Assembly: GCA_965200465.1 (NCBI GenBank)
Contig: OZ241358.1
Span: forward strand, 1,189,872-1,253,871
Source of the DNA: Candidatus Azophilus sp.
Lineage (GTDB): Bacteria > Pseudomonadota > Gammaproteobacteria > Pseudomonadales > Azotimanducaceae
DNA length: 64,000 bases
Direction of reading: 5' to 3'
The notes beneath the pieces were generated by a model. The model worked only from the letters and a program-made list of their open reading frames with translations, did no database searches and was not told where the DNA came from. Positions 3,703 through 29,940 of the stretch are shown here, piece by piece (position 1 is the first letter of the stretch; every line of letters begins with the position of its first letter). The position numbers were made by a program, and so were the translations under genes.

Positions 3703-3754
3703 GTGGTCCGCGGTGGTGCGATAGGAGCAGGCGAATCGCCAGGAGGGGATTGAC

Positions 3755-4162: not shown

Positions 4163-4165
4163 GCT

Positions 4166-4771
4166 ATGGTTGCGCGTTTTGCTTTCTCAGTGGCGCTGGG
4201 GCTGGGCGCCACCTTTGTGCTGTTCCTGGTCATGCAGGCCCTGATAAAGAGCGACAAGAACCCGTTTGAGGAGGGCATAACGGGCAGAATCGTCGATTTC
4301 GTTCGCGTTGAGGAGGAAATGGCGATCGAGACCAAGCAGCGCAAGCCCAAGCCGCCGCCGCCGCCGGACGAGCCGCCGCCGAGCAAGCCGAGGGCCACGC
4401 TCGACACCAGCGCCCAGTCGCAGGGCATTGACATGAGCCAGGTCAACGTCGAGGTGGAGCTTTCCATCGACCACGGCGCCGGCTTCAGTTCGGACGGCGA
4501 ATACTTGCCCATCGTCAAGGTGGCGCCCGTGTATCCCCGTCGGGCGCAAACCCGGGGCATTGAAGGCTATGTGCTGCTTGAGTTCGTGGTTACCCGAACC
4601 GGCGCGGTGCGCGACCCGGTGGTGCTGGAGTCCAAGCCGCCGGGCATCTTTGACCGGGCCGCCCTCAATGCGGCCCTGAAGTTCAAGTACAAGCCGAAGG
4701 TGGTCAACGGCGAACCCATAGACGTGGCCGGCGTGCGCAACCGGATCACTTTCGAGTTGCAGGACGGTTGA
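4166..4771 (+). CDS. tonB: TonB family energy transducer
   Basis: N-terminal TM helix, Pro-rich spacer KPKPPPPPDEPPPSKP and a C-terminal TonB domain (GYVLLEFVVTRTGAVRDPVVLESKPPGIFDRAALNAALKFKYKP). Confidence 0.85.
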   Translation: MVARFAFSVALGLGATFVLFLVMQALIKSDKNPFEEGITGRIVDFVRVEEEMAIETKQRKPKPPPPPDEPPPSKPRATLDTSAQSQGIDMSQVNVEVELSIDHGAGFSSDGEYLPIVKVAPVYPRRAQTRGIEGYVLLEFVVTRTGAVRDPVVLESKPPGIFDRAALNAALKFKYKPKVVNGEPIDVAGVRNRITFELQDG

Positions 4772-11280: not shown

Positions 11281-11357
11281 GCACCCGTGGCCAAATTGGA
11301 TAAGGCACCAGTCTACGAAACTGGGGATTGCTGGTTCGAATCCAGCCGGGTGCGCCA
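11281..11357 (+). tRNA. tRNA-Arg (anticodon ACG)
   Basis: Folded by hand into a 77-nt cloverleaf. Acceptor GCACCCG pairs with CGGGTGC. The anticodon stem CCAGT/ACTGG carries loop CTACGAA (ACG). T-arm is GCTGG-TTCGAAT-CCAGC, with discriminator G and an encoded CCA. Confidence 0.9.
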
Positions 11358-11414
11358 GCCGACGGATGGCGTTGCCATCATTTCTCTAGTCAGAGGCAAT
11401 CAGGAGAGGCGAAC

Positions 11415-13832: not shown

Positions 13833-15221
13833 GTGGCTGGCGACGACGGGCATCCACCTGCGGCGGCGGATGCCCGCCCTGATCTAGGCCGCCGTTGCGG
13901 GCTTGATGCCCCTGCGCCCGGGCCCTACCCGAACCCTGCTTATGCCTGGGCGGTGGTCGGCGCACTGGTGCTGGCCGCGCTGGTGGCCTTCATCGACCGG
14001 CAGGTGGTGGCCATCGTGGTGGATCCGATGAAGGCCGACCTAGGCGTCAACGACGCCCAGATCGGCTGGCTGTACGGCGTGTTCGCGGTGTTCTACGCCG
14101 TCGCCGCGCTGCCCATCGCTTGGCTGGCGGACCGCAGAAGCCGCAAACTCATCATCGCCGCCGGCATCTTCTTCTGGTCCCTAATGACCATGGCCTGCGG
14201 CCTGTCGCGCAGCTTTTGGCATGTGCTCTTGGCCCGCATCGGCGTGGGCGTGGGGGAGGCCACCTTAAGCCCGGCCGCCACCTCCCTGGTGGGGGACTTC
14301 TTCCCTCGGCAACGGGTGCCGCTGGCGCTCTCGGTGTTCCAGACCGGCGCCATCATGGGCTCCGGCATCGCCTTCATCATCGGCGGCTATGTGCTTGGCT
14401 TGGTGCAGGAGGCGCCGCCGCTTAAGCTGCCGTTCTTTGGCGAACTGCGGCCCTGGCAGCAAACCTTCGTCTATGTGGGGGCGCCGGGGCTGCTCATGGC
14501 GCTGCTGTTCGCCCTGCTGCGGGAGCCGGCGCGGCGCATGGGCGCCCAGGTCGGCGGCGGGCGGCTGCGCGACTTGGCGGCGTTCTACCGCAGCAACCTC
14601 AAGACCTTGGCGCTGCACCACTTGGGCTTCCTGTCCCTGGTGTTGGCCGGCTACGCCTTCGTGTTCTGGACGGTCTCCTACTTCGTGCGGGTGCATGGCT
14701 ACGAAGCGGCCCAGGCTTCGCTGATCTTCGGCTGGATTTTCCTGATCGCCGGCCCGACCGGGCCGATATTGGTGGCCCTGCTGGCCCGCCGCCTGAGCGA
14801 CCGCGGCGCCAAGGACGCCAACATCGTCGGCGGCATGGCGGGCGGGGCGGCGGCCATCCTGATCATCCTGGGGATTCAATTCACGCCGAACGCCTTTTGG
14901 GCCTTCGTCCTTTACGTTCCGGCCATGGCGGCCATCAACTCGCCCTTCGGCATCGCCGCCGGCGCCCTGCCGGTCATCACGCCGCCGAACCTGCGCGCCC
15001 AGGTGGCGGCGGTCTATCTGTTCGTCACCTCGCTGGGCATGCTGCTGGGGCCGCCCATCACCGGTGCCTTCAACGAATACGTCTTCCCGGAAGGAGAGGG
15101 GGTGCGCTACTCTCTAGTGACCGTCTCCAGCATCTTCGGCCTGGTCGGCCTCATCGCGCTGCAACTGGCCCGCAAACCCTACGCCCGCAGCCTGGAGGTC
15201 GCGGACCAAAGGGACCCCTAG
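13833..15221 (+). CDS. MFS transporter (Spinster-like)
   Basis: About 12 hydrophobic segments, with FIDRQVV near TM1 and the motif-A-like WLADRRSRKLII. The only upstream in-frame start is the GTG at 13833, so the exact start is uncertain. Confidence 0.8.
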   Translation: MAGDDGHPPAAADARPDLGRRCGLDAPAPGPYPNPAYAWAVVGALVLAALVAFIDRQVVAIVVDPMKADLGVNDAQIGWLYGVFAVFYAVAALPIAWLADRRSRKLIIAAGIFFWSLMTMACGLSRSFWHVLLARIGVGVGEATLSPAATSLVGDFFPRQRVPLALSVFQTGAIMGSGIAFIIGGYVLGLVQEAPPLKLPFFGELRPWQQTFVYVGAPGLLMALLFALLREPARRMGAQVGGGRLRDLAAFYRSNLKTLALHHLGFLSLVLAGYAFVFWTVSYFVRVHGYEAAQASLIFGWIFLIAGPTGPILVALLARRLSDRGAKDANIVGGMAGGAAAILIILGIQFTPNAFWAFVLYVPAMAAINSPFGIAAGALPVITPPNLRAQVAAVYLFVTSLGMLLGPPITGAFNEYVFPEGEGVRYSLVTVSSIFGLVGLIALQLARKPYARSLEVADQRDP

Positions 15222-17022: not shown

Positions 17023-17679
17023 TCATGCCGCCGCTCCCATTTCCTTCGCCAGCCATGCCTGCACCACCGGCACGCTGGCGAACTGCTGGGTGAAGAAGGC
17101 CATGGCGTCCCGGCAGGCGGCCATAGCCGCATCCTGCAGGGCGCTGGAGGCGCCGGCGTGGTTCTGCTTGTGCGCCTTGCCGTAGGCGGTCAAGTCCCAG
17201 CCGCCGAGTTCGACGCCCTGGTTGTCGTGCAGCTTGAAACGATAGCGCAGCCAGACCTCGTAGTAGTCCGAGCGGCTCTGCTCCGGGGTGGCGAACTGCA
17301 CCTCCTCGATGGAAGGCGACAGCACTCCGGCAATGTCAGGATGCTTGGCGTCAACGCGCTCCACCAGCCGATGGCCGGCGAACATGCCCTCCAGCAGGTT
17401 GGCGAACATGGCCGGCTGGGCGGCGCCGAGCTCGATCTCCCAGTCCCCCCGCTGCTCCAAGGACTCCCGGTGGATGTAGGCGAGCAGCGCGTCGTCGAGG
17501 TGGAGGCCCACCGGCAGCGGCACCTTTTCCACCAAGGGCACGGGAAACTGGGTGGGCACCGCCACCTTGGCCCCGGCGCAGCCCACCAACAGGGCCAAGG
17601 CGAACAGCAGCGGGAGGGCTCGGACAAGCCTAGGTTCAGGCCGTCCTCCAGCGCCTTCGGTTGCGGGACAAAGGCGCAT
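17023..17679 (-). CDS. Hypothetical lipoprotein
   Basis: The ATG at 17679 gives MRLC...LPLLFALALLVGCAG (lipobox LVGC). The longer track ORF N-terminus (to 18000) is not protein-like. An AT-richer putative promoter region lies upstream. Confidence 0.55.
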   Translation of the reverse strand: MRLCPATEGAGGRPEPRLVRALPLLFALALLVGCAGAKVAVPTQFPVPLVEKVPLPVGLHLDDALLAYIHRESLEQRGDWEIELGAAQPAMFANLLEGMFAGHRLVERVDAKHPDIAGVLSPSIEEVQFATPEQSRSDYYEVWLRYRFKLHDNQGVELGGWDLTAYGKAHKQNHAGASSALQDAAMAACRDAMAFFTQQFASVPVVQAWLAKEMGAAA

Positions 17680-18027: not shown

Positions 18028-19020
18028 TTACTGGAATTCAGACAAGCCGACAAAGGCGCCTTCGTTGCGGTGCGCCAACTCCCGCATCAGCGCGGCGAAG
18101 CGGTAGATGCGGGCGTTGGGCCGCTGCAAATGCACCGGAAAGCCCACGGCGTTGATGCGCACCCGCCGCCGCCCGGCTTCGTCGGCGACGTTGATGCGGT
18201 CCACCGCATCGACCACCTCCTCTATGGAGTCGCCGCTGTAGTCGTCGCCGAACACATAGATGCCGATGCGCTTGTCCGGCGCGTAGAAGGCGTCGATGGC
18301 GGCCTGAATGCCCTCCACCGGGCTGGAGTTGCTGAACGGGCTCCAACTGCGCAGGGTGTTGATGATGGACTGCCGGCGCGCCGGCGTGTCGGGAATCCAC
18401 TGGCCGCGGTAGCCTGAGAACATGTACTCGCCCATGTCGTTCATCACTTGGATGCCCTTGACGGTGGGATAGACGTCCAAGGTCTCCTGCACCTTGCGCA
18501 GCACCTGCGGCCAGGCGCCGTTGAACATGCTGCCGGAGGTGTCGATGACGAAGATGATGTACTCGCTGTCAACGGCGATGCCGCCCACCAAGTCGCTTTG
18601 GCGGCGGAAATCCATCCCCAGCAGGCGCTCCATCTCGTCGGTGAGGGTCTGGCGGGCGGCGGCCAGCTTCAGGGTCTGCCGCCGCACTTCCTCGTTCGTC
18701 TGCGCGGTGGCCCTGTGCCGGCCGAGCACTCGGGTCAACTCCTCGCGCATGGCGGCCAAGGCCAGCAGGTTCTTGTCCAGCTGGGCGGCGGCCTGCTCCA
18801 CCTGCCGGCGCAGCTCCCGAATCTGGCCCTGGATGTCGTGCAGGGCCTGTTCGCGGCTGGCGACCTGCCCATCCAGGCTGACTGCGGACTTCTCCAGCAG
18901 CACCGGCGCCACCGTCTTGGTGATGAGCAGCAGCAGGATGATGGCCCCGAAGCCGCAGCAGATCACGTCTAGAAAGGAGACGCTGAACTCCTCCATCGGC
19001 CGGCGTCCGCGAATGCTCAT
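18028..19020 (-). CDS. ExbD/TolR-like TM anchor - coiled coil - vWA domain protein (paralogue 2)
   Basis: N-terminus RRPMEEFSVSFLDVICCGFGAIILLLLIT aligns with the in-window ExbD INLTPMLDVVFIMLIFFIV, including the TM Asp. About 100 aa of heptad-like Q/E/R/L sequence follow. The vWA domain has MIDAS DxSxS (FVIDTSGSM). Confidence 0.75.
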   Translation of the reverse strand: MSIRGRRPMEEFSVSFLDVICCGFGAIILLLLITKTVAPVLLEKSAVSLDGQVASREQALHDIQGQIRELRRQVEQAAAQLDKNLLALAAMREELTRVLGRHRATAQTNEEVRRQTLKLAAARQTLTDEMERLLGMDFRRQSDLVGGIAVDSEYIIFVIDTSGSMFNGAWPQVLRKVQETLDVYPTVKGIQVMNDMGEYMFSGYRGQWIPDTPARRQSIINTLRSWSPFSNSSPVEGIQAAIDAFYAPDKRIGIYVFGDDYSGDSIEEVVDAVDRINVADEAGRRRVRINAVGFPVHLQRPNARIYRFAALMRELAHRNEGAFVGLSEFQ

Positions 19021-19033
19021 GGCGCACCGGCCA

Positions 19034-20125
19034 TCAGGGCCAGTCCTTGGAGGGCGCCATGTAGGCGCCGCCGCTGGTGCGGGCTAGGTTCCAAAAGGCG
19101 GCGGAGGCCAAGGGGTCGCCCTCCATCGGCATCAGGATGACGTTGATCGGCACTTGCGGGGGCAGTTGCCGCAGCGCCGCCCGGAACAGGCTGAGCCGGT
19201 CGGCGCCGGAAATGGTCGCCCGCCGCGGCCTTCCGGCGCCCTGGGTGGGCAGGGAGTCAGTCACCAAATAGACGTTGTCCGGCAGGGGGTTCAGGGTGCG
19301 CAGCTTGGCGGCCAAGCGCTCCAGGCTGGTGCCGCCTTTCGGGGTCATGGCGCCTAAGCGGTCGATGGCTGCGGACAGCGCCCGGCCGTCGCCTAGAGGC
19401 GTCCACTGCTCTTCGCTGTCCGGTACTAAGGACAGCGCCTCTTCGCTGAAGGCGAACAATTGGAAGTCCGCGTCCAAGGGCAGTTGCGCGGCCAGCCACT
19501 CCACCGTGCGCACCGCCCGCCGCCACTTGGGAGCGTTGCGCTGGCGCTCCTCCGGCATGTTGCGGCGGCGCAGCACGTTGACGATGGTTTCGTCGAGCAT
19601 GCTGGCGGATGCGTCGATGGCGATGAGGATGTTGCGCCCGCCGACCTTCAGGCCGGTGAGGTACTGCCGATCCCCCTCGCCGACGAACGCCCTGGCCTTG
19701 CCGCCTTCGTCGGCCTCCTCCATTTGGCGCAGCCGGCGCACCTCCTCCTCACGGGCCGCCACGTCGCTGCTCAGCTTCTCCAGGGAGCGCCGCTCCGCCG
19801 AAGACTCGGCGCTTAGGTCGTCGAACGCCTCGCGGGATTGGCGCAGGTCGGCCTGCACGCTCACCAGCTTGCGGCTTGATTCGCTCAGCCGCTGGGCCAG
19901 CGCCTGCAGCCGCTCCCGCCATTCGAACAGGTCCTTCTCGCCGGCTTGCACCTGATAGTCGAGCAGGCGGACTTCGGCAAGCTGCTCCCGGTTGACGACC
20001 TTGGCGTTCTCCTCGGTCTCATGGTTGATGATCAGGAAGATCAGCACCACCGCCCCGAAGCCGCAGGACATGACGTCCAGAAACGACAGCGAGAAGACGC
20101 TCGGCCGCCGTCCGCTGCGGCGCAC
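19034..20125 (-). CDS. ExbD/TolR-like TM anchor - coiled coil - vWA domain protein (paralogue 1)
   Basis: GTG start overlaps the upstream stop (TAGTG). N-terminus RRPSVFSLSFLDVMSCGFGAVVLIFLII is followed by a long coiled coil. The vWA domain has MIDAS IAIDASASM. Same architecture as the 18028-19020 product. Confidence 0.75.
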   Translation of the reverse strand: MRRSGRRPSVFSLSFLDVMSCGFGAVVLIFLIINHETEENAKVVNREQLAEVRLLDYQVQAGEKDLFEWRERLQALAQRLSESSRKLVSVQADLRQSREAFDDLSAESSAERRSLEKLSSDVAAREEEVRRLRQMEEADEGGKARAFVGEGDRQYLTGLKVGGRNILIAIDASASMLDETIVNVLRRRNMPEERQRNAPKWRRAVRTVEWLAAQLPLDADFQLFAFSEEALSLVPDSEEQWTPLGDGRALSAAIDRLGAMTPKGGTSLERLAAKLRTLNPLPDNVYLVTDSLPTQGAGRPRRATISGADRLSLFRAALRQLPPQVPINVILMPMEGDPLASAAFWNLARTSGGAYMAPSKDWP

Positions 20126-21261
20126 TAAGGGCCTTCCTCCACAAGGATGAACTGGAAGCGCCGGCCGTCCCCTTCGTGCATTTCGCCAACGCGCCCCCGC
20201 TCCGGCAGACCGAAGGGATTGCCGCGCAACGGCCAGGCGCGATGGCCCTGCAGGGCGTGGGTGGCGGCCGGCGGCGGCGCTGGGGCGCTGCTTGGGGCGA
20301 CGGCGCCCCTTGGCAGCGTCGTAACCAACTTCAACCCGTCAAGAACACCCTCATGCTGGGCGGCGGCGCGGCTTAAGACGTCCTCCGGCAGGGCCTCGGG
20401 GCGCAGGCCGAGATCACTGAGCGCCGCCATCAGCCCCGGCAGGGCGGCGCTGCGGGGCGCCACCAGCAATTGCGCGTCGGCGGGCACCTTCTCGGCCGCC
20501 GGCGCCAAGCGTTGGGCCAGCTTGTCCTGCAGCGCGGCGCGGCTTAGTTGGGTGCGCCGCACGGCGCCGCGGTGCGTAACCTCCAAGGCCAGGTCGGCTT
20601 GGCCGCCGCTGCGGGACCAAGCGTGCAATTGGTCGTAGAGCTGCTGTTCGGTGTCCGCGGCGTGCAGTGGGTCGAAGCGCAGCTCCTGCACGAAGCGGTC
20701 CGCCGCCAGGTTGGCCCAACCGTCCAGGCAGGAGTTGAGGCCGGCGCTGGCCAGGGGCTCCACTGCGCCGCGGCCCAGCTCTTCGCCGCAGCGAAGTTCG
20801 GTGAGGCAGCAGCGGGTGGCGTGCAGGTCCAGCAGCCAGGTGGGCGGTTGCAGCCGCGCCGCGCTCGCCATCAACAAGGCGGTGTCCACAAAGGCGCGCA
20901 GCTCGAAGCCGGCCTCGTTGGCAATGCCGAGCAGGACGCCGAGTTGCTCCTTGGCCAGAAATCCCGGCACGGCGGCTATGGCCGGCTGTTCCGCCAAGCC
21001 CTGCAACTCCAGCAGGTGCCGATAGACCAGATCCGCATGATTGGCCACCTGCCGCCCCGGGTGCGGCAGCGGGTCCGCGTTCAGCCGCGCCAGATATTGC
21101 TGGTTCGCCTTCTGCGGATGGCGGCGGGCGTTCTTGAGGGCGGCGTCCCCGAAGGTCAGGGCGTCGCCGTCCAGATAGGCGATGGCCGGCTGTTGATGCA
21201 GGATGCGGCCGTCATGGTGCAGGCTGAGAGCCGCGTCGTTGAGCTCCAGCACCAGGGGCAT
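20125..21261 (-). CDS. Cytoplasmic hypothetical protein, possibly a degenerate Hsp70/actin-fold (ASKHA) protein
   Basis: No TM or signal peptide. LVLELNDAALSL, AAVPGFLAKEQLGVLLGIANEAGFELRAFVDTALLMA and WLLDLHATRCCLTEL resemble the Hsp70 phosphate-1, connect and phosphate-2 blocks, but the Gly-rich ATP-binding residues are replaced. The fold call is an inference. Confidence 0.5.
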   Translation of the reverse strand: MPLVLELNDAALSLHHDGRILHQQPAIAYLDGDALTFGDAALKNARRHPQKANQQYLARLNADPLPHPGRQVANHADLVYRHLLELQGLAEQPAIAAVPGFLAKEQLGVLLGIANEAGFELRAFVDTALLMASAARLQPPTWLLDLHATRCCLTELRCGEELGRGAVEPLASAGLNSCLDGWANLAADRFVQELRFDPLHAADTEQQLYDQLHAWSRSGGQADLALEVTHRGAVRRTQLSRAALQDKLAQRLAPAAEKVPADAQLLVAPRSAALPGLMAALSDLGLRPEALPEDVLSRAAAQHEGVLDGLKLVTTLPRGAVAPSSAPAPPPAATHALQGHRAWPLRGNPFGLPERGRVGEMHEGDGRRFQFILVEEGP

Positions 21262-21361: not shown

Positions 21362-22165
21362 TCACTGGCCCCGCACCTGAAGATGGCTCATTAGGCGCTG
21401 GTCGCAGTAGGTCTGCACGTCCAGCACCAGGCGCTCCTGAACGAGCTGCAGTTGGTGCATCAGGAACATGATGACGATGCTGATGACCAAGGCGATGAAG
21501 GTGGAGTTGAAGGCCACGCCTAGGTTGGCCGTCACCCCGGCGATGTCCCCCTCCACGGCCTTGTAGGCCTGTCCAAGGGCCTGGCTGATGCCGCGCACCG
21601 TGCCGATGAAGCCTATGCTGGGAATCGCCCAGGCGATGTAGCGGACCATGGCCAGTTCGCTGTCCAGCCGGTCCGATTCGCTGTCGCAGACCGCCTTGAC
21701 GGCCACCGAGACGTCCTGCACGTTGCGGGTGGCGGCGAAGCGCTGCAGGGCGGACAGCAGCGCCCTTGGCAGCAGCCGCTCCCGCACCGGCGCCGGCAGC
21801 GCCTGAATGGGGCGGGCGTATTCCCGGGCGTCCTCCGGCAGGATGCTCATGCCGTCCGCCACCCGGATGACGTCCTCCGCCAAGAGGCGGCGTTCGCGCA
21901 GGGCGCTGCGGCCCTTGTAGCCCATGATCGCCATTGCCCAAAGCATCAGCACGAAGCAGGACTCCTGCTCGAAGTCCTTGAGCATGACGTAGAGGGACTG
22001 CTGCTCGTCAACGCGCTCGCCGGCCGCCGCCTGCTCGGCCCGCAGTTCAAGGACGGCTTGGGCGTTGGGGCGCACGACGGTGATGTAGAGCAGATGCACG
22101 ACGATCAGCGCCAGCACCAAGGCGGCTATCTGGTAGATCAGCTCCGTGGGCAGTGGCCGCTTCAT
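21362..22165 (-). CDS. MotA/TolQ/ExbB proton-channel family protein
   Basis: 267 aa with three TM helices. The motif AIPSIGFIGTVRGISQA plus FNSTFIALVISIVIMFL parallels the in-window ExbB CPLLGLLGTVTGMISVF. Confidence 0.8.
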   Translation of the reverse strand: MKRPLPTELIYQIAALVLALIVVHLLYITVVRPNAQAVLELRAEQAAAGERVDEQQSLYVMLKDFEQESCFVLMLWAMAIMGYKGRSALRERRLLAEDVIRVADGMSILPEDAREYARPIQALPAPVRERLLPRALLSALQRFAATRNVQDVSVAVKAVCDSESDRLDSELAMVRYIAWAIPSIGFIGTVRGISQALGQAYKAVEGDIAGVTANLGVAFNSTFIALVISIVIMFLMHQLQLVQERLVLDVQTYCDQRLMSHLQVRGQ

Positions 22166-22557
22166 ATATCCACCGGGAAGGGCGCGGCGAAGTCCTCGGA
22201 AATTTCCTCGGAGGGCAGGAACACTTCTTGACGCGGCCCTTCATTCCTTGCGGCTTCGGCATCGCCGGCCGGGTCGGCGCGGCCCTCCGCGGCGGGCGCC
22301 GGCGGCGCCTCGTTCGGAGGCTTCGCCGCCGGCCGCTCCGCCGCTTGCGTGGCGCCGGCGAGGCCGCAAAGCAGCAGGACGGCCGCGCCGCGCCGGATGC
22401 AGCCTAGGTGGAGCCAAGCGCAAGGCGACCGGTCGAACCGCTCTGCATGGCCCGTCCGCCCTGGCGCCGCCGCTGCCTTGGAGACATTGCGCAATTGCGG
22501 CCGCCGCCGGCGAGCGGGAGGGCTTCCTGTTGATGCGCAGCGCATGTTCGTTTCCAC
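22162..22557 (-). CDS. Small single-pass membrane or secreted protein, acidic Pro/Ala-rich C-terminus
   Basis: Hydrophobic segment GAAVLLLCGLAGATQA followed by a Pro/Ala/Glu-rich tail. Its stop overlaps the MotA-like start (ATGA). Only the ATGs at 22557 and 22545 are available as starts, so the N-terminus is uncertain. Confidence 0.4.
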   Translation of the reverse strand: METNMRCASTGSPPARRRRPQLRNVSKAAAAPGRTGHAERFDRSPCAWLHLGCIRRGAAVLLLCGLAGATQAAERPAAKPPNEAPPAPAAEGRADPAGDAEAARNEGPRQEVFLPSEEISEDFAAPFPVDI

Positions 22558-22597: not shown

Positions 22598-24643
22598 CTA
22601 GGGCGCGGCCTCCGCAAAGCGGGCGATTCTAAAGCCTAGATCCGGCCGGCCGTCAATGCCGTAGTCGCGGAATGACAGCCTGAGATCGGTGACGGTGCCG
22701 TGCATCCAGCTGGAGCCGCGGATGACATGATACTCCCCCGCGGCCGGCCCTAGAGGGCCGACGCCTTCGGGGACCGGATGCTGGTAGTAGTCGTTGGTCC
22801 ACTCCGCCGCGTTGCCGCCTAGGTCGAAGAGGCCCTTGGCGTTGGCGGCGAACGCGCCCACCGGCGCCGCTACGGCGTAGTTGTCGTTGTAGCCGAAGAC
22901 GACCCGTCCGACCAGATGGCCGGCGGAGCGGTCCGCGTAGTTGCCGTGGCGGTCGGGTGGCGGCAGGGCCTCCCCCCAGGGAAAGCGAAGCAGCGTCGCC
23001 GCGCCCTCCTGGGTGCGGGCCGCCCAGGCCCACTCCGCCTCCGTCGGCAGCCGGTAGCCAGTGGCTTGCGGGTTGAAGCCGGTCGCCTTGCCGAACTCCT
23101 CGATGTAGAACGGCGGCAGGTTTTCCCGGCGGGACAGCCAGTTGCAGTAGAGTGCGGCGTCGTGCCAGCTTAAGCTCGCCGCCGGCTGATCGTCCTTGTT
23201 CAGGGGCTGGTCCTCGTAGGAGCCGGAGTCATGGCCGCTGGCGAAGGCCCTGAACTCCGCGTTGGTGACCTCCTTGACGGCTAGGTAGAACAGCCGCTTG
23301 AGCGCCACGTCGCGCAGGGTTTCATTGGCCCGCCGGCCCGCCTCCCTTCTGGAGGCGCCTAAGGTGATGGGGCTGGGCTGCAGCAACCTCAGCACCTGTC
23401 CCTGAGCCGTGGTGATTTCCGGGGGCAGCGCCGCCAGCCGCGCCTCCTCCAAGGTCAGCAGGTTGGCGCGCACCTCCAGGGTAAGCCCCGGCCGCGGGGT
23501 GACCTTGGCGCTGTGGTCGGCGTAGCCCGGTGCGCTGATTCTTAAAGTGTGGCGGCGAGCCGGCAACTCCAGGGTTTGGTTGGCCGGCCCGGCCGGGCGT
23601 CCGTTAACGTGCAGCAGGGCGTTGGCCGGGGAGGCCTGCACCGCCACCGCCCCGACCAGTTGCTCAAGCTCCAGGGACAGCGTTCGCGCTTCGCCGGCCG
23701 CCAGCCGCAGGTTCGCCTCCCGCGCCGCGAAACCGGCTTTGAAGACCCGCACGCGATAGGCGCGGCCGGAGCGAAGCTCCACCCGCAGCGGGGATTCGCC
23801 CTGATACTTGCCGTCGATGGTTACGCCGGCGCCGACCGGCCGGGTGCTTAGGCGCAGCGAGGCGTCGGCCTGCCGCAGCTTGATGGGGGAGGGGGCGCGC
23901 CGCTCCTGCGCGACGACCAGAATGCGCTGGCGATGGGCTTGGTGGCCGTCGAGCAGCAGCGCCACCTCATGCTCCCCGGCCAGGATCTCCGTAGTCGCCG
24001 GGGTGCGCCGGCCGGTGTCCCGCCCATCGACCAGGATGCGGGCGCCGGGCGGCTCGGTGACGTAATGCACTTCGCCCCAGTTGGGCGTCAACTCCGCATC
24101 CACCCGTTGCGGCCGCCGCTTGCCAACCACCGTCACCGGCAGCTCCCTTGCTTGATGGCGTGGATGGGTGAAGCGCAACAGCCGCTTCCCGGCCGGCACG
24201 GGAACGTCCGTCAACGGCGTTGCGCCGACGGCCTTGCCGTCAATGCTCACCGAGGCACCGGCGGGAGCGGAGTGGACGCTCAGCAGGCCGGGCAGGGGGG
24301 TGAACTCAAAGGCGAAGGCTTGGTTTCGTTCGGGGCCGACCCGCAGTTCCTTGTCCAAGGGATGATGGCCGGCGAGTTCCGCCCGCACCCGGTAGCTTTG
24401 GCGCAGCAGCAGATGAACGCCGCCGAAGGCGAGAGCCGGGCCGCCGGCAAGCTCCACCCGGTCGGCCGGCGGCGAAAACGCCAACTCCACCGAGCGGGCG
24501 GTGAACAGGAACACCAGCAAGGCGGCGGCGCCCAGCGCCACGGCCGCCAAGGCGATCGGCACCGGCGCGACCTTGGAGCGCCTTGCTCCCGCCGCTGCCG
24601 AAGGCTGATAGCGAATGGGCTGGATCGCCGGGCCGTCGGTCAT
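22598..24643 (-). CDS. Membrane-anchored PEGA-repeat protein with C-terminal FGE-sulfatase (SUMF1/GldK-like) domain
   Basis: The ATG at 24643 overlaps the upstream stop (ATGA). It has TM helix VPIALAAVALGAAALLVFLF and at least four ~70-aa PEGA-like repeats (e.g. LSVHSAPAGASVSIDGKAVGATPL..., LRLSTRPVGAGVTIDGKYQGESPL...). The C-terminus carries FGE-fold blocks AASLSWHDAALYCNWLS, YRLPTEAEWAWAAR, GGNAAEWTNDYY, RGSSW and LGFRIARF. Confidence 0.8.
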   Translation of the reverse strand: MTDGPAIQPIRYQPSAAAGARRSKVAPVPIALAAVALGAAALLVFLFTARSVELAFSPPADRVELAGGPALAFGGVHLLLRQSYRVRAELAGHHPLDKELRVGPERNQAFAFEFTPLPGLLSVHSAPAGASVSIDGKAVGATPLTDVPVPAGKRLLRFTHPRHQARELPVTVVGKRRPQRVDAELTPNWGEVHYVTEPPGARILVDGRDTGRRTPATTEILAGEHEVALLLDGHQAHRQRILVVAQERRAPSPIKLRQADASLRLSTRPVGAGVTIDGKYQGESPLRVELRSGRAYRVRVFKAGFAAREANLRLAAGEARTLSLELEQLVGAVAVQASPANALLHVNGRPAGPANQTLELPARRHTLRISAPGYADHSAKVTPRPGLTLEVRANLLTLEEARLAALPPEITTAQGQVLRLLQPSPITLGASRREAGRRANETLRDVALKRLFYLAVKEVTNAEFRAFASGHDSGSYEDQPLNKDDQPAASLSWHDAALYCNWLSRRENLPPFYIEEFGKATGFNPQATGYRLPTEAEWAWAARTQEGAATLLRFPWGEALPPPDRHGNYADRSAGHLVGRVVFGYNDNYAVAAPVGAFAANAKGLFDLGGNAAEWTNDYYQHPVPEGVGPLGPAAGEYHVIRGSSWMHGTVTDLRLSFRDYGIDGRPDLGFRIARFAEAAP

Positions 24644-26205
24644 TGCTGCAGCGCTTCCCGGCAACTGATGTCTATGGGCGCCATGTCCTCGGCCACGGTG
24701 ATCTGGGCGCGGAAGTCCCGGCAGCCGTCGCGGCTGGCGACGATGGTGTAGGCGCCGGGCCGCAGGCGCAGGCGTTTTTCGGAGAAGCGGCCCAAGGGAC
24801 CTATGTTGGAGAGCAGCACCTCGCTGGCGTTGTCCGAGCGCAGCAGCACCGGCACCGGGCTGCCGTAGCGCCGCAGCAGGGCGTCCGCTGCGGCGACGGC
24901 GGCGGCCAGCACGGGGCCTTGGGGGGCAAGCCGCTTGGCTTCGTCCAGCGCCTGCAAGGCGTCTCGGTAGCGCGCCTCGGCGGACAGCAGGTCCGCGTTG
25001 GCCATGAGTTCGTTCAGGGCCTCCAGAGTTCGCCGCTGGGTTGCCGCCCGCCGCAGTCCGGCCTTGGCGAACTGGACATTGGCGTCCAAGGCCAAAATGC
25101 CCTGGTAGGCGTCCGCCGCCTGCCGCCATTGCTCAGCGGCGGCGAAGGCCGCGGCTTGCTGCTTGAGGCGGCTGATTTCCGCCAGCACCGACTGTTCCGC
25201 GAGCTGCTGCAGGCCGCCGAGGGCGGACGAGTTGTTGGCGTCCATGGCCAGCGCCTGCTCGAAGGCGCTTCTGGCCGCGGCGAACTCCTGCCGCTCCAAG
25301 GCCGCGAAGCCTGTGGAAAGATGGCTGCGCAGCCTTTGCGCCGCCTCGTTCCGGCGGGCTTGGGCAAGGGCGTCGGCGAGGCCGGACGTTGCGGCGTCCA
25401 AGGCGCGGATGCCCTCGTAGGCGCGGACGGCGTCGGCCCAGCGCCCGGCCAGTTCGTGGTTGCGGGCTTGGCGAAATCGGTCGAGCAAGTCCGGCAGCCG
25501 GGCGGCTCGGGCCGCGGCTTGCGCCAACCTTGGGCTGTCGGGCTTGATTTGCTTGGCTTGGTCGAGCTGGGAGCGGGCCTCTTCGGAATTGCGGGCGTCA
25601 ATGGCGGCGAGCGCCGCCGCCAAGGCGCCGTTGAACTGGGAGTGGCCGGCTGCGAGCAACGCGGCCAAGGCGTCCGCCGCTTGCCGGTAGCCGCCGATGG
25701 CCTGCTCAAAGCGTTCGGCGACGAAGGCTTCATCCCCGGCTTGGGCTAGGTCGCGGGCTTGGTCATAGCCTTCCTGTCCCCATGCGCCGACGTTCAGTTC
25801 GTCGCGCAGGCGCAGCTCCAGCTCCACGAAGCGGGCCAGCGCGGCGCTGGCGTCGGTGCGCGCCTGCTCCCGGCGCAAAGCGGCGAAGGGGGGCGGCTGT
25901 TCGGCGGCCGGGCGGCTGGGGCGCGGCGTCGTGGCGGCGCCCTCCTGCGTTGGCGGGGGAGGCTTGACAACAGGTGCCCACTGGGGCGCCAGAGTGAACA
26001 GCGTCGCCACCATGGCGGCGGCCGCCAAGCCGACGGCGGCGTAGAGCGGCCAGCGGCGGCCGTCGGCGCCCGATTTGGCCGTCGTCCGGTTGGCGTGGGT
26101 AAGTGGAACCGGCTGCGGTTCGATCAGCGGCGAATCGCCGACGGGCCTCCGCTCCGTCCCGACTAGGGACGGAGCCCCGGGTTTGGGTCCTGGCTCATTC
26201 TTCAC
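24640..26205 (-). CDS. Single-pass membrane protein with TPR-like helical repeats and a C-terminal PEGA-like beta domain
   Basis: TM helix WPLYAAVGLAAAAMVATLFTL and a Pro-rich linker. The repeated Ala-rich helical hairpins are TPR-like (WADAVRAYEGIRALD, FAAARSAFEQALAMD, WRQAADAYQGILALD). The C-terminus RLRPGAYTIVASRDGCRDF resembles a PEGA strand motif. Confidence 0.65.
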   Translation of the reverse strand: MKNEPGPKPGAPSLVGTERRPVGDSPLIEPQPVPLTHANRTTAKSGADGRRWPLYAAVGLAAAAMVATLFTLAPQWAPVVKPPPPTQEGAATTPRPSRPAAEQPPPFAALRREQARTDASAALARFVELELRLRDELNVGAWGQEGYDQARDLAQAGDEAFVAERFEQAIGGYRQAADALAALLAAGHSQFNGALAAALAAIDARNSEEARSQLDQAKQIKPDSPRLAQAAARAARLPDLLDRFRQARNHELAGRWADAVRAYEGIRALDAATSGLADALAQARRNEAAQRLRSHLSTGFAALERQEFAAARSAFEQALAMDANNSSALGGLQQLAEQSVLAEISRLKQQAAAFAAAEQWRQAADAYQGILALDANVQFAKAGLRRAATQRRTLEALNELMANADLLSAEARYRDALQALDEAKRLAPQGPVLAAAVAAADALLRRYGSPVPVLLRSDNASEVLLSNIGPLGRFSEKRLRLRPGAYTIVASRDGCRDFRAQITVAEDMAPIDISCREALQQ

Positions 26206-26229: not shown

Positions 26230-27432
26230 TTACGCGGGGTCGTCCGTCTCGGCCGGCGCCGGGGCGGGCAGCCCTAGGTCTGCAAAGTAGAGTTCGCGCA
26301 GGATGCGGCGCAGTTCCTGGTATTGCTGATCGACCGTGCCCTGCAGGCGCACGGTCTGGTTCTCCAACTCCAGGGTGTGGGGCATGATTTCGGCCTCCGC
26401 CGCCATGCCGATCTCCTGCAGGGCCTCCGCCTGCATGGCGGCCTCGTTCCTTTTCGCCACCGCGCCCTTGATCAAGGCGGCGCCGGCGCCGATGGCGACT
26501 AAGCCGGTGGCGTCAATGTAGGGATTGCTGCTGTCGTAGATGGCGCCGATGCCGGCGCCGATGGCGGCGGCGCCGGTCAGGGCGCGGGTGCGCGCCTGGG
26601 CCTTGAGTTCGCGCAGGGCGGCGGCCTCCGAGTAGGTGGCGTTGCGCCATTCCTGATAGGGGCGGTGCATTTGCCGATGGTAGTTGGCGTAGTGTTCGTC
26701 CAGGGTGTCGATGAAGACGTACTCGCGCTCCCGCACTTGGCGCACCCGCGCCAGCATGGGGTCGTCCTCCGCCGGCAGCCGCAGCAGCTTGAAGCCGCCC
26801 TCGGGCAGCGCCTGCACATGGCTGGCGAAGGCGTCCGGCGCGAAGTCCCGGGCGAACTTCATCTCCGCGGTGGCGCGGATGGCGCGGATGGTTGCGTCGT
26901 CCAACGTCTCCCGGTAGGCCAGCATGTCGTCCGCCAACTGCCGGTAGTTGGCTTGGAAGGGGTCGATGCCCGGCGGCATGGTCGGCGAATAGGCGTATTT
27001 GCTGGCCAGCGCCCGGTAGGTCCTGCTGAACCAAACCTGGCCGCGGGCGTCCGCCACCGTGAATTCCTGGGTGAGGCGTTCGCCGTCCGACTCCAGAATC
27101 TTGCCGGTGACGGTGACGTCCACGGCGTGGGTGGGCCGGGGAACCACCCGCACGGCGCCCCAGTTGCCGGTGCTTTGCAGCACGTTCTTGGCGAAGTAGG
27201 GCATGAACTGCGCTTCGGCGCGACGAATGTCCGGGTTGATGAGTTGGGCGACCTGCTCGTCAAAGCTCTCCGGAATGTTGGGGTCCAGCACGGCGACGCC
27301 GATGTCGAGCAGGTGCGTCTCGTCCTGAACGCCTTGGAACTGCTTCGGCGGCGTTAGGTCCACCGTGCGCACGGATTCGGAGACGCAGGCGGTGAGCGCC
27401 GCCATGCAAAGGGCAATGGGGATGAGGCGCAT
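26230..27432 (-). CDS. Hypothetical lipoprotein with C-terminal glycine-zipper segments
   Basis: MRLIPIALCMAALTACVSE (lipobox LTAC). Near the C-terminus are two Gly/Ala-rich hydrophobic segments, GAAAIGAGIGAIY and LVAIGAGAALIKGA. The start lies 2 nt after the upstream stop. Confidence 0.65.
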   Translation of the reverse strand: MRLIPIALCMAALTACVSESVRTVDLTPPKQFQGVQDETHLLDIGVAVLDPNIPESFDEQVAQLINPDIRRAEAQFMPYFAKNVLQSTGNWGAVRVVPRPTHAVDVTVTGKILESDGERLTQEFTVADARGQVWFSRTYRALASKYAYSPTMPPGIDPFQANYRQLADDMLAYRETLDDATIRAIRATAEMKFARDFAPDAFASHVQALPEGGFKLLRLPAEDDPMLARVRQVREREYVFIDTLDEHYANYHRQMHRPYQEWRNATYSEAAALRELKAQARTRALTGAAAIGAGIGAIYDSSNPYIDATGLVAIGAGAALIKGAVAKRNEAAMQAEALQEIGMAAEAEIMPHTLELENQTVRLQGTVDQQYQELRRILRELYFADLGLPAPAPAETDDPA

Positions 27433-27434
27433 GG

Positions 27435-28385
27435 TCAGCGGCCCTTGTATCTCTCGTATTCCGCCCAGAGTTTCTCGCGCAGCACTGGGTCCTGCTCCGC
27501 CATGGCCGCTTCGCGCAGTTGCCGGGCGATGATGTCGTCGTCCTTGGCGTCCGGGACGCCGCCCGCCGTCCGTCCGCCGCCGCTGCCCGGCATGGCCGGG
27601 GCGGGGCGCGGCGCTCTGGTGGTGCGTGCGCCGGGAGATGCGGCCTTGCCACCGCCTCCGGCCGGCTTGGCGGGGGCTGGTTGCGGAACCCCGCCGCCGG
27701 TTCCGGCGGTGCCGCGGTTGGAGCGTTCGGTGATGACGGAGCGTTCCGCCAGAATCTCTCCGTCGAACGCCTCAAGAGCTTGCTCCAGGGCGCCTTGCCC
27801 GCTTGCCGGAGCGCCGCCCTTGGCGCCTGAACCCGGCAGGCTGCTGGGGTTGCCGCCGCTGGGCGCTTGGCTGCCGGAAGCGGAACCGCCGGGCACGGAA
27901 CCGCTGGGTGCGGAGCTGCCGGGGACCGAACCGCCGGGCGCCGTTCCACTGGGCATGGCGCCGCCGGCTGGGGAATGGCCGGGTGCGCCGCCGCCGGGCG
28001 TTGAACCATCGGAGGATGGAGCGCCTGTTGAGCCTGGCGCGTTTGGCGGCGGCGGTATGCGCGCCTGCCCAGCGCCGCCGGGCATGGAGTTGGACGAACC
28101 GCCGGAAGTTCCGCCGGGGCTTGGCGCTCCTGCAGGCTCGGCGCCGCCCGGCAAACCGCCTGGGCTGGGCAGACCGCCTCCGGGAAGGCCGCCACTGGGC
28201 AGTCCTCCGCTGGGCAGTCCTCCGCTGGGCATGCCGCCGCCACTTGGCCCGCCGCTGGAGGAACCGCCGCTGGGGCCGGAGGACGAAGGCGATTGCGGCT
28301 GCTGCGGATAGAGCGGCGATATGGGCGCACAGGCCCACAGCAGAGCGAGCAGGGCGAAAAAAGCAATCTTGCAAGCGGCGCTCAT
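27435..28385 (-). CDS. Gly/Ser/Pro-rich low-complexity lipoprotein
   Basis: The ATG at 28385 gives MSAACKIAFFALLALLWACAP (lipobox LWAC). About 230 aa of G/S/P repeats follow (PSGGLPSGGLPSGGL...). The C-terminus is an ordinary helix, DDIIARQLREAAMAEQDPVLREKLWAEYERYKGR. Strand was chosen from the lipobox and operon context. Confidence 0.55.
   Translation of the reverse strand: MSAACKIAFFALLALLWACAPISPLYPQQPQSPSSSGPSGGSSSGGPSGGGMPSGGLPSGGLPSGGLPGGGLPSPGGLPGGAEPAGAPSPGGTSGGSSNSMPGGAGQARIPPPPNAPGSTGAPSSDGSTPGGGAPGHSPAGGAMPSGTAPGGSVPGSSAPSGSVPGGSASGSQAPSGGNPSSLPGSGAKGGAPASGQGALEQALEAFDGEILAERSVITERSNRGTAGTGGGVPQPAPAKPAGGGGKAASPGARTTRAPRPAPAMPGSGGGRTAGGVPDAKDDDIIARQLREAAMAEQDPVLREKLWAEYERYKGR
28195..28239. 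repeat. 15-bp tandem repeat x3 inside the Gly/Ser/Pro-rich lipoprotein gene
   Basis: ctgggcagtcctccg ctgggcagtcctccg ctgggcatgccgccg, read directly. On the minus strand it encodes the PSGGL pentapeptide repeats. More degenerate G/S/P-coding repeats extend over about 27850-28290. Confidence 0.8.
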
Positions 28386-28548: not shown

Positions 28549-29940
28549 TTAGGCGTCTTCATCGTCCGCGTCCTCCTCCCGCACAAAGTAGCTGAATTCA
28601 TGCCGGTAGGTTTCCTGTTCAAAGGCGGTGGTTCGGCCATCGACCAAGGCCGGGCGGTAGCGGGCGTTGCGCAGGCTGCGGCGCACCGAGAAGTCCATCA
28701 TGCCCTTCGGCTCGGAGGCCACCACCTGCATGTTCTGGACGCCGCCGGTGGGCGACACCCGAAACGCCACCTCCACGAAGCCGGGGTTCTCCTTCCCCGC
28801 CAAGGCCCGCCGCCCCGAAGGCGGCTTTGGATCCTTGGGCAGGGGCATGTGCAGCAGCTTCGGCTTGGCGAAGTAGGCCTCGGCATCCACTGAGTCGAGT
28901 TGCTGCATGACGCCGTAAACGTGCTCGTAGAGGACTTCCGCCTTGTTGAAGCGCTCCCAAAGCAGGTGCCAGTCGGCCAGGTCCAGGATGGCTTCCGAAA
29001 CCGGCAGGGGGCCGCTGGCGGGATCTTCCCGACGAATGTGGATGACCGCCTGCAGCGCCCTCTCCGCCACGGGGAAGTTGTTGAAGGTCAGGGGCGCGTC
29101 GAAGGCCGAGGTGCGCACGCTGGGCCGGGTGGACATGGCGAACGCCGGCGCCTCCCGCTCGCTGGCGTAAAAGGGCGGGAAGCGCTCCATGCGGTAGGTT
29201 TCGGCAAGCCCCTGCAGCGCTGGGATGGCCTTGGGCGCCCCCTCGTCGCCGTTGGCCGCATGAATGCGCAGCGCCTGCTCAAACAGGGCGCGGGCGGCGA
29301 AGATGTTGTACCTTGCGTTGTGCCACTTGGCGAGGCGGAAGATGCCGGGCAGCAGGGCCTCGCTGTCCGCCCCGTGAGCCTTCCACAGGACTTCAAAGGC
29401 GTACTCCTCGCGGCTGGCGGCCTCCTCCAGGTTGCCGAGGCGCTGCAGCGCCTCCGACTGCTTGTAAACCGCTTCGACCTGGTTGGGGGTGAACAGGCCG
29501 TCGCTGACCCGGCTGACGTGGACCGCCGTGGCGTAGCTTTGCAGCGCTTCCTCGTATTGGCGAAGGCCGAACTGGGCGTCGCCAAGCAGGGTCAGCGGCC
29601 TAGCCAAGTCCCCGTGGTGGCGGTGGCGGGCGGCTTCAAGGGCGCGGATGTAGGGCACTAGGAAGGCTTGCGCCTTCCCGTATTCGGCGTTGTCGATGTC
29701 AACCGCCACCGCATCGAGCGGCGAGGCCGTTGCGCCAAGGGCTTCCTTGATGCGCTCCATCGCCGCCGCAACCGAGGATTCCCCAGCCGCGGCGGCTTGC
29801 GGCGCTGCGGCCTCCGGGCGAGCCTTAAGCTCGGCGGCGCCGGCCGCGCCAGGCAGCGGCAGCGCCAGCAGAACAACGGCCTGCACCAGCAGCAAGCAAC
29901 CGCGCCGCCGCCCGGCGCGGCTTTGCAAGGACGTCGCCAT
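28549..29940 (-). CDS. Secreted TPR-repeat protein with C-terminal TonB-C-like domain
   Basis: The ATG at 29940 gives a signal peptide (CLLLVQAVVLLALPLPGAAGA). The central region is TPR-like. A KDPKPPSG linker precedes GFVEVAFRVSPTGGVQNMQVVASEPKGMMDFSVRRSLRNARYRPALVDG. That block aligns with the in-window TonB C-domain GYVLLEFVVTRTGAVRDPVVLESKPPGIFDRAALNAALKFKYKPKVVNG. Confidence 0.65.
   Translation of the reverse strand: MATSLQSRAGRRRGCLLLVQAVVLLALPLPGAAGAAELKARPEAAAPQAAAAGESSVAAAMERIKEALGATASPLDAVAVDIDNAEYGKAQAFLVPYIRALEAARHRHHGDLARPLTLLGDAQFGLRQYEEALQSYATAVHVSRVSDGLFTPNQVEAVYKQSEALQRLGNLEEAASREEYAFEVLWKAHGADSEALLPGIFRLAKWHNARYNIFAARALFEQALRIHAANGDEGAPKAIPALQGLAETYRMERFPPFYASEREAPAFAMSTRPSVRTSAFDAPLTFNNFPVAERALQAVIHIRREDPASGPLPVSEAILDLADWHLLWERFNKAEVLYEHVYGVMQQLDSVDAEAYFAKPKLLHMPLPKDPKPPSGRRALAGKENPGFVEVAFRVSPTGGVQNMQVVASEPKGMMDFSVRRSLRNARYRPALVDGRTTAFEQETYRHEFSYFVREEDADDEDA

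Follow-up and report, generated by a model that had tools for sequence, protein, structure and literature searches.

Two adjacent minus-strand genes were analysed in a 64,000-nucleotide stretch of the genome of Candidatus Azophilus sp. (assembly GCA_965200465.1, contig OZ241358.1, forward-strand positions 1,189,872 to 1,253,871), which is hereafter called the window and in which position 1 is the first letter. The genes encode paralogous proteins, designated vWA-A and vWA-B, in which a transmembrane (TM) helix with an invariant aspartate is followed by a predicted coiled coil and a domain predicted to have the vWA fold, and they lie in an operon with a MotA-like gene. The two proteins probably form the inner axle of an ion-driven motor of the 5:2 type, with the MotA-like protein as its pentamer. 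This motor-partner idea is a re-discovery of a proposal published in 2025 (Mol Biol Evol, PMC12204202), to which the credit belongs. What the present analysis adds is a set of invariance statistics for the whole family, negative or weak tests of homology that include a control by shuffling, stalk lengths found to be fixed and to covary, an orthology of the A and B proteins that is ancient and spans phyla, the status of the metal-ion-dependent adhesion site (MIDAS) in both heads, and a conserved operon that comprises at least 11 genes and supplies candidate partners.

Architecture of the vWA-A and vWA-B pair

The two genes and their parts were delimited from the open reading frames (ORFs), homologue alignments, AlphaFold2 (AF2) models and Foldseek searches, and are as follows.

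19034..20125, minus strand: vWA-A, 363 residues; predicted N-in TM helix, coiled coil and periplasmic vWA domain (ORF, homologues, AF2, Foldseek)
20027..20095, minus strand: vWA-A TM helix, residues about 11-33; invariant Asp17 (codon 20075-20077), motif SFLDVMSCGFGA
19715..20026, minus strand: vWA-A stalk, residues 34-137; one continuous helix with heptads, predicted coiled coil (AF2 pLDDT 89-98)
19037..19648, minus strand: vWA-A vWA domain, residues about 160-363; MIDAS set D171, S173, S175, T266 and D290
18028..19020, minus strand: vWA-B, 330 residues; paralogue of vWA-A with the same architecture (ORF, BLASTP, AF2, Foldseek)
18919..18987, minus strand: vWA-B TM helix, residues about 12-34; invariant Asp18 (codon 18967-18969), motif SFLDVICCGFGA
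18616..18918, minus strand: vWA-B stalk, residues about 35-135; helical with heptads (AF2 helices 17-45, 49-103 and 109-135, low confidence)
18046..18573, minus strand: vWA-B vWA domain, residues about 150-325; D160, S162, S164 and D259 invariant, with an SSPVEG loop at the usual place of the MIDAS Thr

Both ORFs were recovered on the minus strand where an earlier, sequence-only reading of the window had placed them, with N-termini exactly as it had quoted them. The vWA-A start codon is GTG, with GGAGGAAGG directly 5' of it, and overlaps the upstream gene (20125-21261) by one base; vWA-B begins 13 bp after vWA-A. The two proteins were aligned by BLASTP over residues 5-187 (E=2e-12, 29% identity), a region that runs from the TM helix through the coil to the first MIDAS strand, and the paralogy claimed in that reading is borne out by this match. 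Homologues of vWA-A fell into more than 6000 clusters at 90% identity and into 1373 clusters at 50% identity (E<=1e-3), and those of vWA-B into at least 8000 clusters at 90% identity. The TM motif pattern was matched in at least 595 species genomes in one genome scan.

The AF2 model of vWA-A, built from a 104-sequence alignment, had a mean pLDDT of 90.6 and was composed of a helix at residues 10-20, a continuous helix at 22-137, a low-confidence linker at about 138-160, and an alpha/beta domain at 160-363. For vWA-B, the vWA part was modelled with pLDDT of 84-95. Pfam matches to the heads were below the gathering cut-offs (VWA_3 at 19.8 bits vs 27 for vWA-A and VWA at 18.8 bits vs 23.8 for vWA-B, E about 1e-3 in each case), and the family profile gave weak matches to ITIH4 and VWA2 in the PDB (E=0.003 to 0.04). 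Using Foldseek, the vWA-A model was matched to TFIIH p44/Ssl1, 4fx5, BatB, ITIH1, the LapA vWFA domain, and CMG2 (E=4e-7 to 1e-5, probability 1.00), and the vWA-B model to ITIH1, ANTXR2, and Rpn10 (E about 1e-7, probability 1.00); as modelled, both proteins have the vWA fold. The sequence-only reading had described a TM helix in both proteins and, where ExbD has its periplasmic domain, a coiled coil about 100 residues long together with a vWA domain; this architecture was confirmed by hydrophobicity, heptads, AF2 and Foldseek, and the replacement of the ExbD domain by AF2 and Foldseek.

MIDAS positions were assigned from sequence together with secondary-structure position. The first motif is present and conserved in both heads, as that reading had stated, in the form of DASAS in vWA-A (D171/S173/S175) and DTSGS in vWA-B (D160/S162/S164). 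In vWA-A all five MIDAS positions are present and conserved: among 104 sequences, D171 was kept in 95, S173 in 104, S175 in 98, T266 in 87, and D290 in 104; in vWA-B, D160, S162, S164, and D259 were each kept in 75 of 75 sequences. The heads may bind a ligand in a metal-dependent manner, as that reading had proposed.

Hydrophobic residues occupied the heptad a and d positions of the stalk with a frequency of 0.64 in vWA-A (vs 0.24 at the other positions) and 0.74 in vWA-B (vs 0.29), and the PDB matches of the vWA-A family profile were mostly coiled-coil proteins. The spacing from the TM Asp to the MIDAS Asp was 154 residues in 59 of 77 vWA-A sequences and 142 residues in 56 of 77 vWA-B sequences, and it varied within 3-5 residues only, across sequences that were 40-100% identical. 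The modelled helices end at residue 137 in vWA-A and at residue 135 in vWA-B. Both the spacing and these helix ends would fit a coiled coil in which A and B pair in parallel and in register as a heterodimer, about 100 residues and, at 0.15 nm per residue, about 15 nm long.

Each protein has one hydrophobic segment (residues 15-33 in vWA-A and 16-34 in vWA-B), flanked by a basic N-terminal side and an acidic or neutral C-terminal side. Across the family, the mean count of Lys plus Arg was 3.4-3.7 in the N-terminal flank vs 1.3-1.6 in the C-terminal flank, the former being the richer in 86-96% of sequences. This positive-inside bias places the stalks and heads in the periplasm, and the periplasmic location put forward in the sequence-only reading is thereby upheld as a predicted topology.

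The membrane aspartate and the MotA-like protein

The TM helices of vWA-A and vWA-B share the motif SFLDxMxCGFGA, and in both the Asp is found two residues into the most hydrophobic 19-residue segment. The Asp of the genuine ExbD encoded in the window (3755-4162, plus strand; PF02472, E=9e-29) lies at the same offset in its own hydrophobic segment. The TM Asp was kept in all homologues that contain the N-terminus (more than 500 sequences). By tally, it was present in 113 of 113 representatives at 50% identity, in 116 of 116 close homologues of vWA-A and 120 of 120 of vWA-B, in all 159 distinct vWA proteins of 80 loci, and, for vWA-B, in all 79 distinct orthologous loci that carry this gene. 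Seeming losses were traced to fragments or to gene calls beginning at the internal Met of MSCGFGA; orthologues without the Asp, which the sequence-only reading had named as evidence that would speak against it, were thus absent among the homologues that include the N-terminus. In the TM helices of 104 diverse vWA-A sequences, D17, G24, and L28 were invariant and F15, L16, C21, G22, and A25 were at least 90% conserved. With spacings of i, i+3/4, i+7, and i+11, the residues S14, D17, C21, G24/A25, and L28 all lie on one helical face. Neither His nor an SHLS-type motif was found in the TM helices of vWA-A and vWA-B, the sequence being SFLDVMSCGFGAVVLIFLII.

The proposed partner is encoded in the same operon.

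21362..22165, minus strand: MotA/TolQ/ExbB-family protein, 267 residues; presumed pentameric motor subunit (PF01618, E=2.4e-14)

This MotA-like protein scored 53.6 bits against PF01618 (cut-off 22.9) and far below the NCBIfam equivalog cut-offs of TolQ and ExbB, and is neither equivalog. When it was aligned with E. coli TolQ, T189 (GTVRGI) fell in the GTVWGI segment and T222 (NSTFIAL) in the ATAIGL segment, and each was at least 97% conserved in 70 MotA-like orthologues. We take T189/T222 to be the equivalents of TolQ T145/T178 (ExbB T148/T181), positions around the Asp of the partner. His24 and Tyr27 in the first TM helix were likewise at least 97% conserved in 70 orthologues; we know of no equivalent conserved His in the first TM helix of ExbB or TolQ.

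All six-frame ORFs (19,367) within 10 kb on either side of 81 loci were searched with an ExbD/TolR hidden Markov model (HMM), and only the separate ExbD of the window (3755-4162) was matched. The gaps listed for the operon, which range from overlaps of a few bases up to 100 bp, leave no room for an exbD or tolR gene. The operon therefore contains a gene for a MotA-family pentamer without the obligatory Asp partner, unless the vWA proteins fill this role. Of the 70 loci that were informative, about 68 contained the MotA-like gene together with the vWA genes, and the association recurred across phyla. The sequence-only reading had placed both vWA genes next to one MotA-like gene; a single MotA-like gene is indeed present in the operon with both of them, and the direct adjacency has to be corrected, the gene for a 378-residue protein (g378; 20125-21261) lying between the MotA-like gene and vWA-A.

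In the proposed motor, the outer pentamer would be the MotA/TolQ-like protein, encoded two genes upstream of vWA-A, and each vWA protein would insert N-in and give one trans-pore helix. D17 of vWA-A and D18 of vWA-B would be located inside the pentamer, beside the T189/T222 pair, and their protonation and deprotonation by the proton-motive force would drive relative rotation or a power stroke. Both helices would run unbroken into the parallel coiled coil (about 100 residues, about 15 nm) and then into a short flexible linker, and two different MIDAS heads would thereby be held deep in the periplasm. Motion would reach the partners bound by the heads directly, with no TonB/TolA-type adaptor.

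Homology of the helix and alternative readings

Several results weigh against this motor, beginning with those on the descent of its helix. When the 45-residue N-termini and the full proteins were compared with Pfam using hmmscan, no ExbD match (PF02472) was obtained at E<=10, and the ExbD/TolR HMM missed both vWA proteins among the 19,367 ORFs. A profile of the TM region run against 177,635 PDB sequences returned no ExbD, TolR, or MotB; its sole return was a chance match to NDUFB4 (E=0.3). Using hhalign, the TM profile was aligned with an ExbD/TolR alignment at a probability of 13% (P=0.002), with SFLDV paired to PMLDV, Asp on Asp, and with a required 5-residue gap over the CGFGA motif that is the family's own. 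When the columns of the ExbD TM region were shuffled with matched composition, 6 of 300 shuffles equalled the real hhalign score. Among the remaining results of this kind, the MIDAS Thr of vWA-B is not evident and its place is taken by the invariant SSPVEG loop, of which the Ser or the Glu may be a substitute. The AF2 model of vWA-B is of low confidence outside the vWA domain because the alignment was shallow, and the covariation of the vWA-A and vWA-B spacing lengths (Spearman rho=0.64) is uncorrected for phylogeny. Two of about 70 loci, L023 and L032, have no MotA-like gene between the gene for a PEGA/FGE protein and the g378 homologue, with the TM Asp kept, and L023 has a single vWA gene.

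The sequence-only reading had counted on a significant ExbD-family match for the TM region, and none was obtained by hmmscan, PDB profile, hhalign, or shuffles, which formally speaks against it. Its alignment of the N-termini with the ExbD of the window holds in that Asp falls on Asp at the same depth, and is not statistically significant as similarity. Separately, an hhalign comparison of the full-length family with ExbD gave a 19-column match that was judged spurious. The proteins vWA-A and vWA-B are not members of Pfam ExbD: a match to the family profile and the periplasmic ExbD/TolR alpha/beta domain are both missing, and what they do have is a single TM helix, oriented N-in, whose conserved Asp lies close to the cytoplasmic side, and a MotA/ExbB/TolQ-family gene in the operon. 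Locally, the motif F-L-D-V-M is similar to F-I-D-V-M of E. coli ExbD and L-L-D-V-L of TolR. Remote homology and convergence would each fit this motif and the depth of the Asp, and the resemblance is suggestive, not significant. It is plausible that the helix works like that of ExbD; that it belongs to the ExbD family is unproven. Of the sequence-only reading as a whole, the observation stands, the functional interpretation is well, if indirectly, supported, and the ExbD-family homology of the helix is the part that sequence comparison does not establish.

The lack of significant similarity to ExbD, TolR, or MotB would also suit signal-anchored periplasmic vWA scaffolds of the BatA/BatB type, in which the S-D-C-G-A-L face would pack with its counterpart or with other bitopic operon proteins outside the MotA-like pore, and the MotA-like protein would use a TolR or ExbD from elsewhere or act alone. 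One of the structures that the vWA domain resembles most is BatB, and Asp-bearing vWA genes are kept at L023 and L032, where there is no adjacent MotA-like gene. We judge such scaffolds decidedly unlikely: to keep a buried, never-varying Asp in a bitopic helix is costly, and is unusual where the residue has no function, and none of the other bitopic proteins of the operon has a basic residue in its TM segment that could pair with it. Moreover, no cognate partner gene for the MotA-like protein was found in 81 loci, yet the Thr pair that faces the partner's Asp in TolQ and ExbB is kept, and the co-occurrence of the MotA-like and vWA genes in about 68 of 70 loci and across phyla also argues against them. 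Within the motor itself, A2 and B2 homodimers could make two kinds of motor on the same pentamer, each with its own target. The near-identical TM motifs would allow either protein to fit the pore, and a single vWA gene is found at L023. The adjacency of A and B, seen in all but one of 80 loci and also in Verrucomicrobia, their stalks, which have fixed lengths that covary and helices taken to end at the same residue number (137 in vWA-A and 135 in vWA-B), and the heterologous pairs noted in PMC12204202 all point away from homodimers, none of them decisively, and this arrangement is unlikely but credible.

A TolA-like layout (TM helix, long helical region, and globular C-terminal domain), together with a TonB_C-domain protein in the same operon, would be compatible with TolA/TonB-like peripheral transducers that dock outside a TolQR/ExbBD-type motor, as in the other vWA family of PMC12204202. 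This adaptor reading was rejected because the TM helices have no His or SHLS-type motif and because there is no tolR gene, neither tolR nor exbD being found beside the MotA-like gene in 81 loci; the stalk, furthermore, is a heptad coiled coil and not a Pro-rich or disordered linker, and we consider the reading highly improbable. An inverted topology, with cytoplasmic vWA domains acting with the neighbouring and possibly Hsp70-like g378, is barely believable. It would accord with the lack of a signal peptide or TM segment in g378 and with the one-base overlap of its gene with vWA-A, and is opposed by the strong family-wide positive-inside bias and by the remaining operon products, which are secreted proteins, lipoproteins, or proteins with a TM anchor and a large portion in the periplasm. 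A Zorya-like defence system was also tried as a candidate and rejected, PADLOC having given coiled-coil noise and a weak ZorA match (E=0.0027). The reading preferred here is the 5:2-type motor with vWA-A and vWA-B as its inner subunits.

The wider operon and comparison with known systems

The operon in which the vWA genes are situated comprises at least 11 closely packed genes on the minus strand, several of which overlap by ATGA or by one base. The genes other than those already listed are given below in the order of transcription.

28549..29940, minus strand: secreted TPR protein with a TonB C-terminal domain (TPR_12, E=4e-10; TonB_C, PF03544, E=5.8e-8, 33.5 bits vs 24.6)
27435..28385, minus strand: predicted lipoprotein; lipobox LWAC, very long Gly/Pro/Ser-rich linker, C-terminal segment DDDIIARQLREAAM...LWAEYERYKG
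26230..27432, minus strand: predicted lipoprotein, 400 residues; lipobox LTAC, no known family; 56 of 80 loci
24640..26205, minus strand: TPR-like protein, 521 residues, TM-anchored; weak TPR matches; 61 of 80 loci, in conserved order
22598..24643, minus strand: PEGA/FGE protein, TM-anchored; four PEGA domains (E=4e-47) and a C-terminal FGE-sulfatase fold (E=6e-36)
22162..22494 (TTG) or 22162..22545 (ATG), minus strand, start uncertain: small secreted protein; signal peptide, acidic/Pro-rich low-complexity spacer, C-terminus ...FLPSEEISEDFAAPFPVDI
20125..21261, minus strand: g378, 378 residues, between the MotA-like gene and vWA-A; no TM segment, no signal peptide; 76 of 80 loci
17023..17679, minus strand: predicted lipoprotein directly downstream of vWA-B; lipobox LVGC; 63 of 80 loci
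16208..about 16906, minus strand: predicted lipoprotein; lipobox LGGC, weakly conserved, operon membership uncertain; 9 of 80 loci

The order from the 400-residue lipoprotein to the lipoprotein that follows vWA-B was kept in essentially all of the 80 Pseudomonadales-type loci that were long enough; its core runs PEGA/FGE protein, small ORF, MotA-like protein, g378, vWA-A, vWA-B, and lipoprotein, and in 79 of 80 loci A and B are neighbours. Upstream, the C-terminal segment of the lipoprotein at 27435-28385 (DDDIIARQLREAAM..LWxEYxRYKG) was found directly upstream of the 400-residue gene in 51 loci, and the TPR/TonB_C gene was syntenic in 32 loci. In the Verrucomicrobium Puniceicoccaceae bacterium K14, the core consists of the PEGA/FGE gene, the small ORF, two extra genes, a MotA_ExbB gene, a 499-residue protein, A, B, and a 229-residue protein, whose gene is at the same position as the lipoprotein after vWA-B. 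Both verrucomicrobial vWA proteins keep SFMDCICCGFGA, and their best matches are A to A and B to B. Given this shared order and these matches across phyla, the pair is ancient and has been kept as a pair.

The start codon of the PEGA/FGE gene (ATG at 24643) overlaps the upstream stop, and the gene was present in 67 of 80 loci and in Verrucomicrobia. The best NCBIfam match of its product was GldK (type IX secretion system ring lipoprotein GldK/PorK), at 74 bits vs a cut-off of 350, because of which the protein is not regarded as a GldK orthologue. The cysteine pair of FGE is catalytic; it is absent from the PEGA/FGE protein, which reads RGSSWMHGTVTDLRLSFRDY instead. The small secreted protein is unannotated, and the stop codon of its gene overlaps the MotA-like start (ATGA). 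Its C-terminal motif (F.PSEEISED..V.FPVDI-stop) was found in 57 of 68 loci, ending at the MotA-like start; the protein was also noted at L081:4057-4323, and the verrucomicrobial counterpart ends in ...SSVEMPSDV. It is possible that this acidic C-terminus is a ligand of the MIDAS heads. No Pfam family was found for the conserved cytoplasmic protein g378, including in scans of 23 orthologues; the sole match of its profile in the PDB was the Hsp70-type SSZ1 (E=0.56), and a comparison by hhalign with the DnaK nucleotide-binding domain gave P=0.07. Motifs read from the g378 sequence are LELND..., VLAVPG..EQLG.LLGI, LDL....LT.L, and L.PR.A.LPGL. A degenerate Hsp70/actin-like fold is possible on these motifs and weak matches and is not established; g378 could anchor or regulate the motor from the cytoplasm.

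Likely partners of the heads would be found among the products of the conserved operon: the GldK-like FGE-fold/PEGA protein, any of the lipoproteins, the protein with TPR and TonB_C domains, or the small secreted protein by way of its acidic C-terminus. As a tentative extension, possible rather than probable, the vWA pair would serve as the drive shaft in a complete and as yet unnamed machine that spans the envelope and is encoded by at least 11 genes in marine and soil Gammaproteobacteria and in Verrucomicrobia. In this machine, the coiled coil, a rigid heterodimer about 15 nm long, would be turned or pulled by a 5:2 motor of the MotA-like kind, and its two non-identical MIDAS heads would engage partners in the outer periplasm (the GldK-like FGE-fold/PEGA protein, three or four lipoproteins, and the TPR/TonB_C protein, with the acidic peptide of the small protein as a possible MIDAS ligand). 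If true, this would be a third way to energise the outer envelope, besides TonB/TolA adaptors and the GldM/PorM shaft, and candidate roles would be secretion, surface movement, and envelope maintenance. Should the motor reading hold, MotA/ExbB-type 5:2 motors would also drive a widespread envelope machine, beyond flagella, TonB, Tol-Pal, gliding, and Zorya, whose inner subunits bear their own stalk and ligand-binding heads. The family is deeply conserved and is present in cultured marine bacteria (among them Congregibacter, Kineobactrum, and Pseudohalioglobus), and these proposals are therefore directly testable.

Elsewhere in the window, a complete TonB2-type energy-transduction cluster (923-6123, plus strand) is the source of the ExbD used for comparison; two further genes lie between it and the vWA operon, and a restriction-modification gene lies within a stretch of lower G+C content (0.62-0.63 at 30-32 kb).

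923-1693, plus strand: DUF3450 protein
1558-3174, plus strand: long TtpC-like MotA_ExbB protein
3184-3702, plus strand: ExbB
3755-4162, plus strand: ExbD (PF02472, E=9e-29)
4166-4771, plus strand: TonB
4768-6123, plus strand: TPR protein of the Ton cluster
11328-13802, plus strand: TonB-dependent receptor (Plug and beta-barrel), between the Ton cluster and the vWA operon
13833-15221, plus strand: MFS transporter, following the TonB-dependent receptor in the same interval
31180-34476, minus strand: Type ISP restriction-modification enzyme, 1098 residues (Type_ISP_C, E=1.5e-73; N6_Mtase)

A literature search for experimental work on this gene cluster returned only PMC12204202, which is an in-silico proposal. 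In that paper, TPH-vWA proteins are described as TM-tethered vWA proteins, predominantly in heterologous pairs, that are tightly linked to tolQ-like genes without tolR or exbD; they have an ExbD/TolR-like trans-pore helix with a conserved Asp and no SHLS motif, and occur in Proteobacteria and Verrucomicrobia. Its AlphaFold3 models, made for an example of its own, have the conserved Asp pair inside a Thr ring, and it states that no phenotypes are known; the paper thus arrived independently at the motor-partner reading. The features listed there were reproduced for vWA-A and vWA-B, namely a TM tether on a protein that ends in a vWA fold, a tolQ-like gene closely linked to it where tolR, exbD, and motB are all missing nearby (with L023 and L032, which lack the MotA-like gene, as exceptions), a conserved Asp in the putative trans-pore helix without SHLS or His, and a heterologous pair. 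The two proteins were assigned to the TPH-vWA family on the basis of these described features, and no feature spoke against the assignment. PMC12204202 makes no mention of a coiled coil as stalk or of its constant length, of the state of the MIDAS, of g378, or of the wider operon.

The nearest functional analogy beyond ExbB-ExbD and TolQ-TolR is the 5:2 motor of gliding and type IX secretion, GldL-GldM and PorL-PorM, in which the dimeric inner subunit is a periplasmic shaft of about 18 nm proposed to energise the outer-membrane-proximal GldK/GldN ring (PMC9389320). The likeness is by analogy only: GldK has an FGE-sulfatase fold and this operon encodes an FGE-fold protein, whereas neither GldL nor GldM has a sequence relationship with MotA/ExbB or with the vWA proteins, and the GldM shaft is made of globular domains instead of a coiled coil that ends in a vWA head. 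The GldK parallel is accordingly best treated as a lead, not a finding.

With MotA-MotB, PomA-PomB, and ZorA-ZorB, the system shares a MotA-family pentamer and a bitopic partner with a conserved TM Asp. Whereas MotB, PomB, and ZorB end in anchoring OmpA-like peptidoglycan-binding domains, no such domain was found in vWA-A or vWA-B by Pfam, NCBIfam, or Foldseek, and, unlike for flagellar stators, there are no flagellar genes near the vWA operon. The bitopic anchor and vWA domain are shared with BatA/BatB, the BatB structure 3ibs being among the best Foldseek matches. Bat (Bacteroides aerotolerance) operons are built around MoxR-type ATPases and are not known to contain a MotA-like gene, and we know of no invariant TM Asp or coiled-coil stalk in BatA or BatB.

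[quoted passage not shown] Unlike ExbD and TolR, vWA-A and vWA-B have no PF02472 match and no ExbD/TolR periplasmic domain, and carry their own CGFGA motif after the Asp; unlike ExbB-ExbD and TolQ-TolR, there are two paralogous partners here, which bring their own stalk and head instead of a TonB/TolA adaptor. The family would offer a natural experiment on the ways in which an Asp-bearing trans-pore helix may be joined to unrelated output domains, and on whether force may be delivered without a TonB/TolA-type adaptor.

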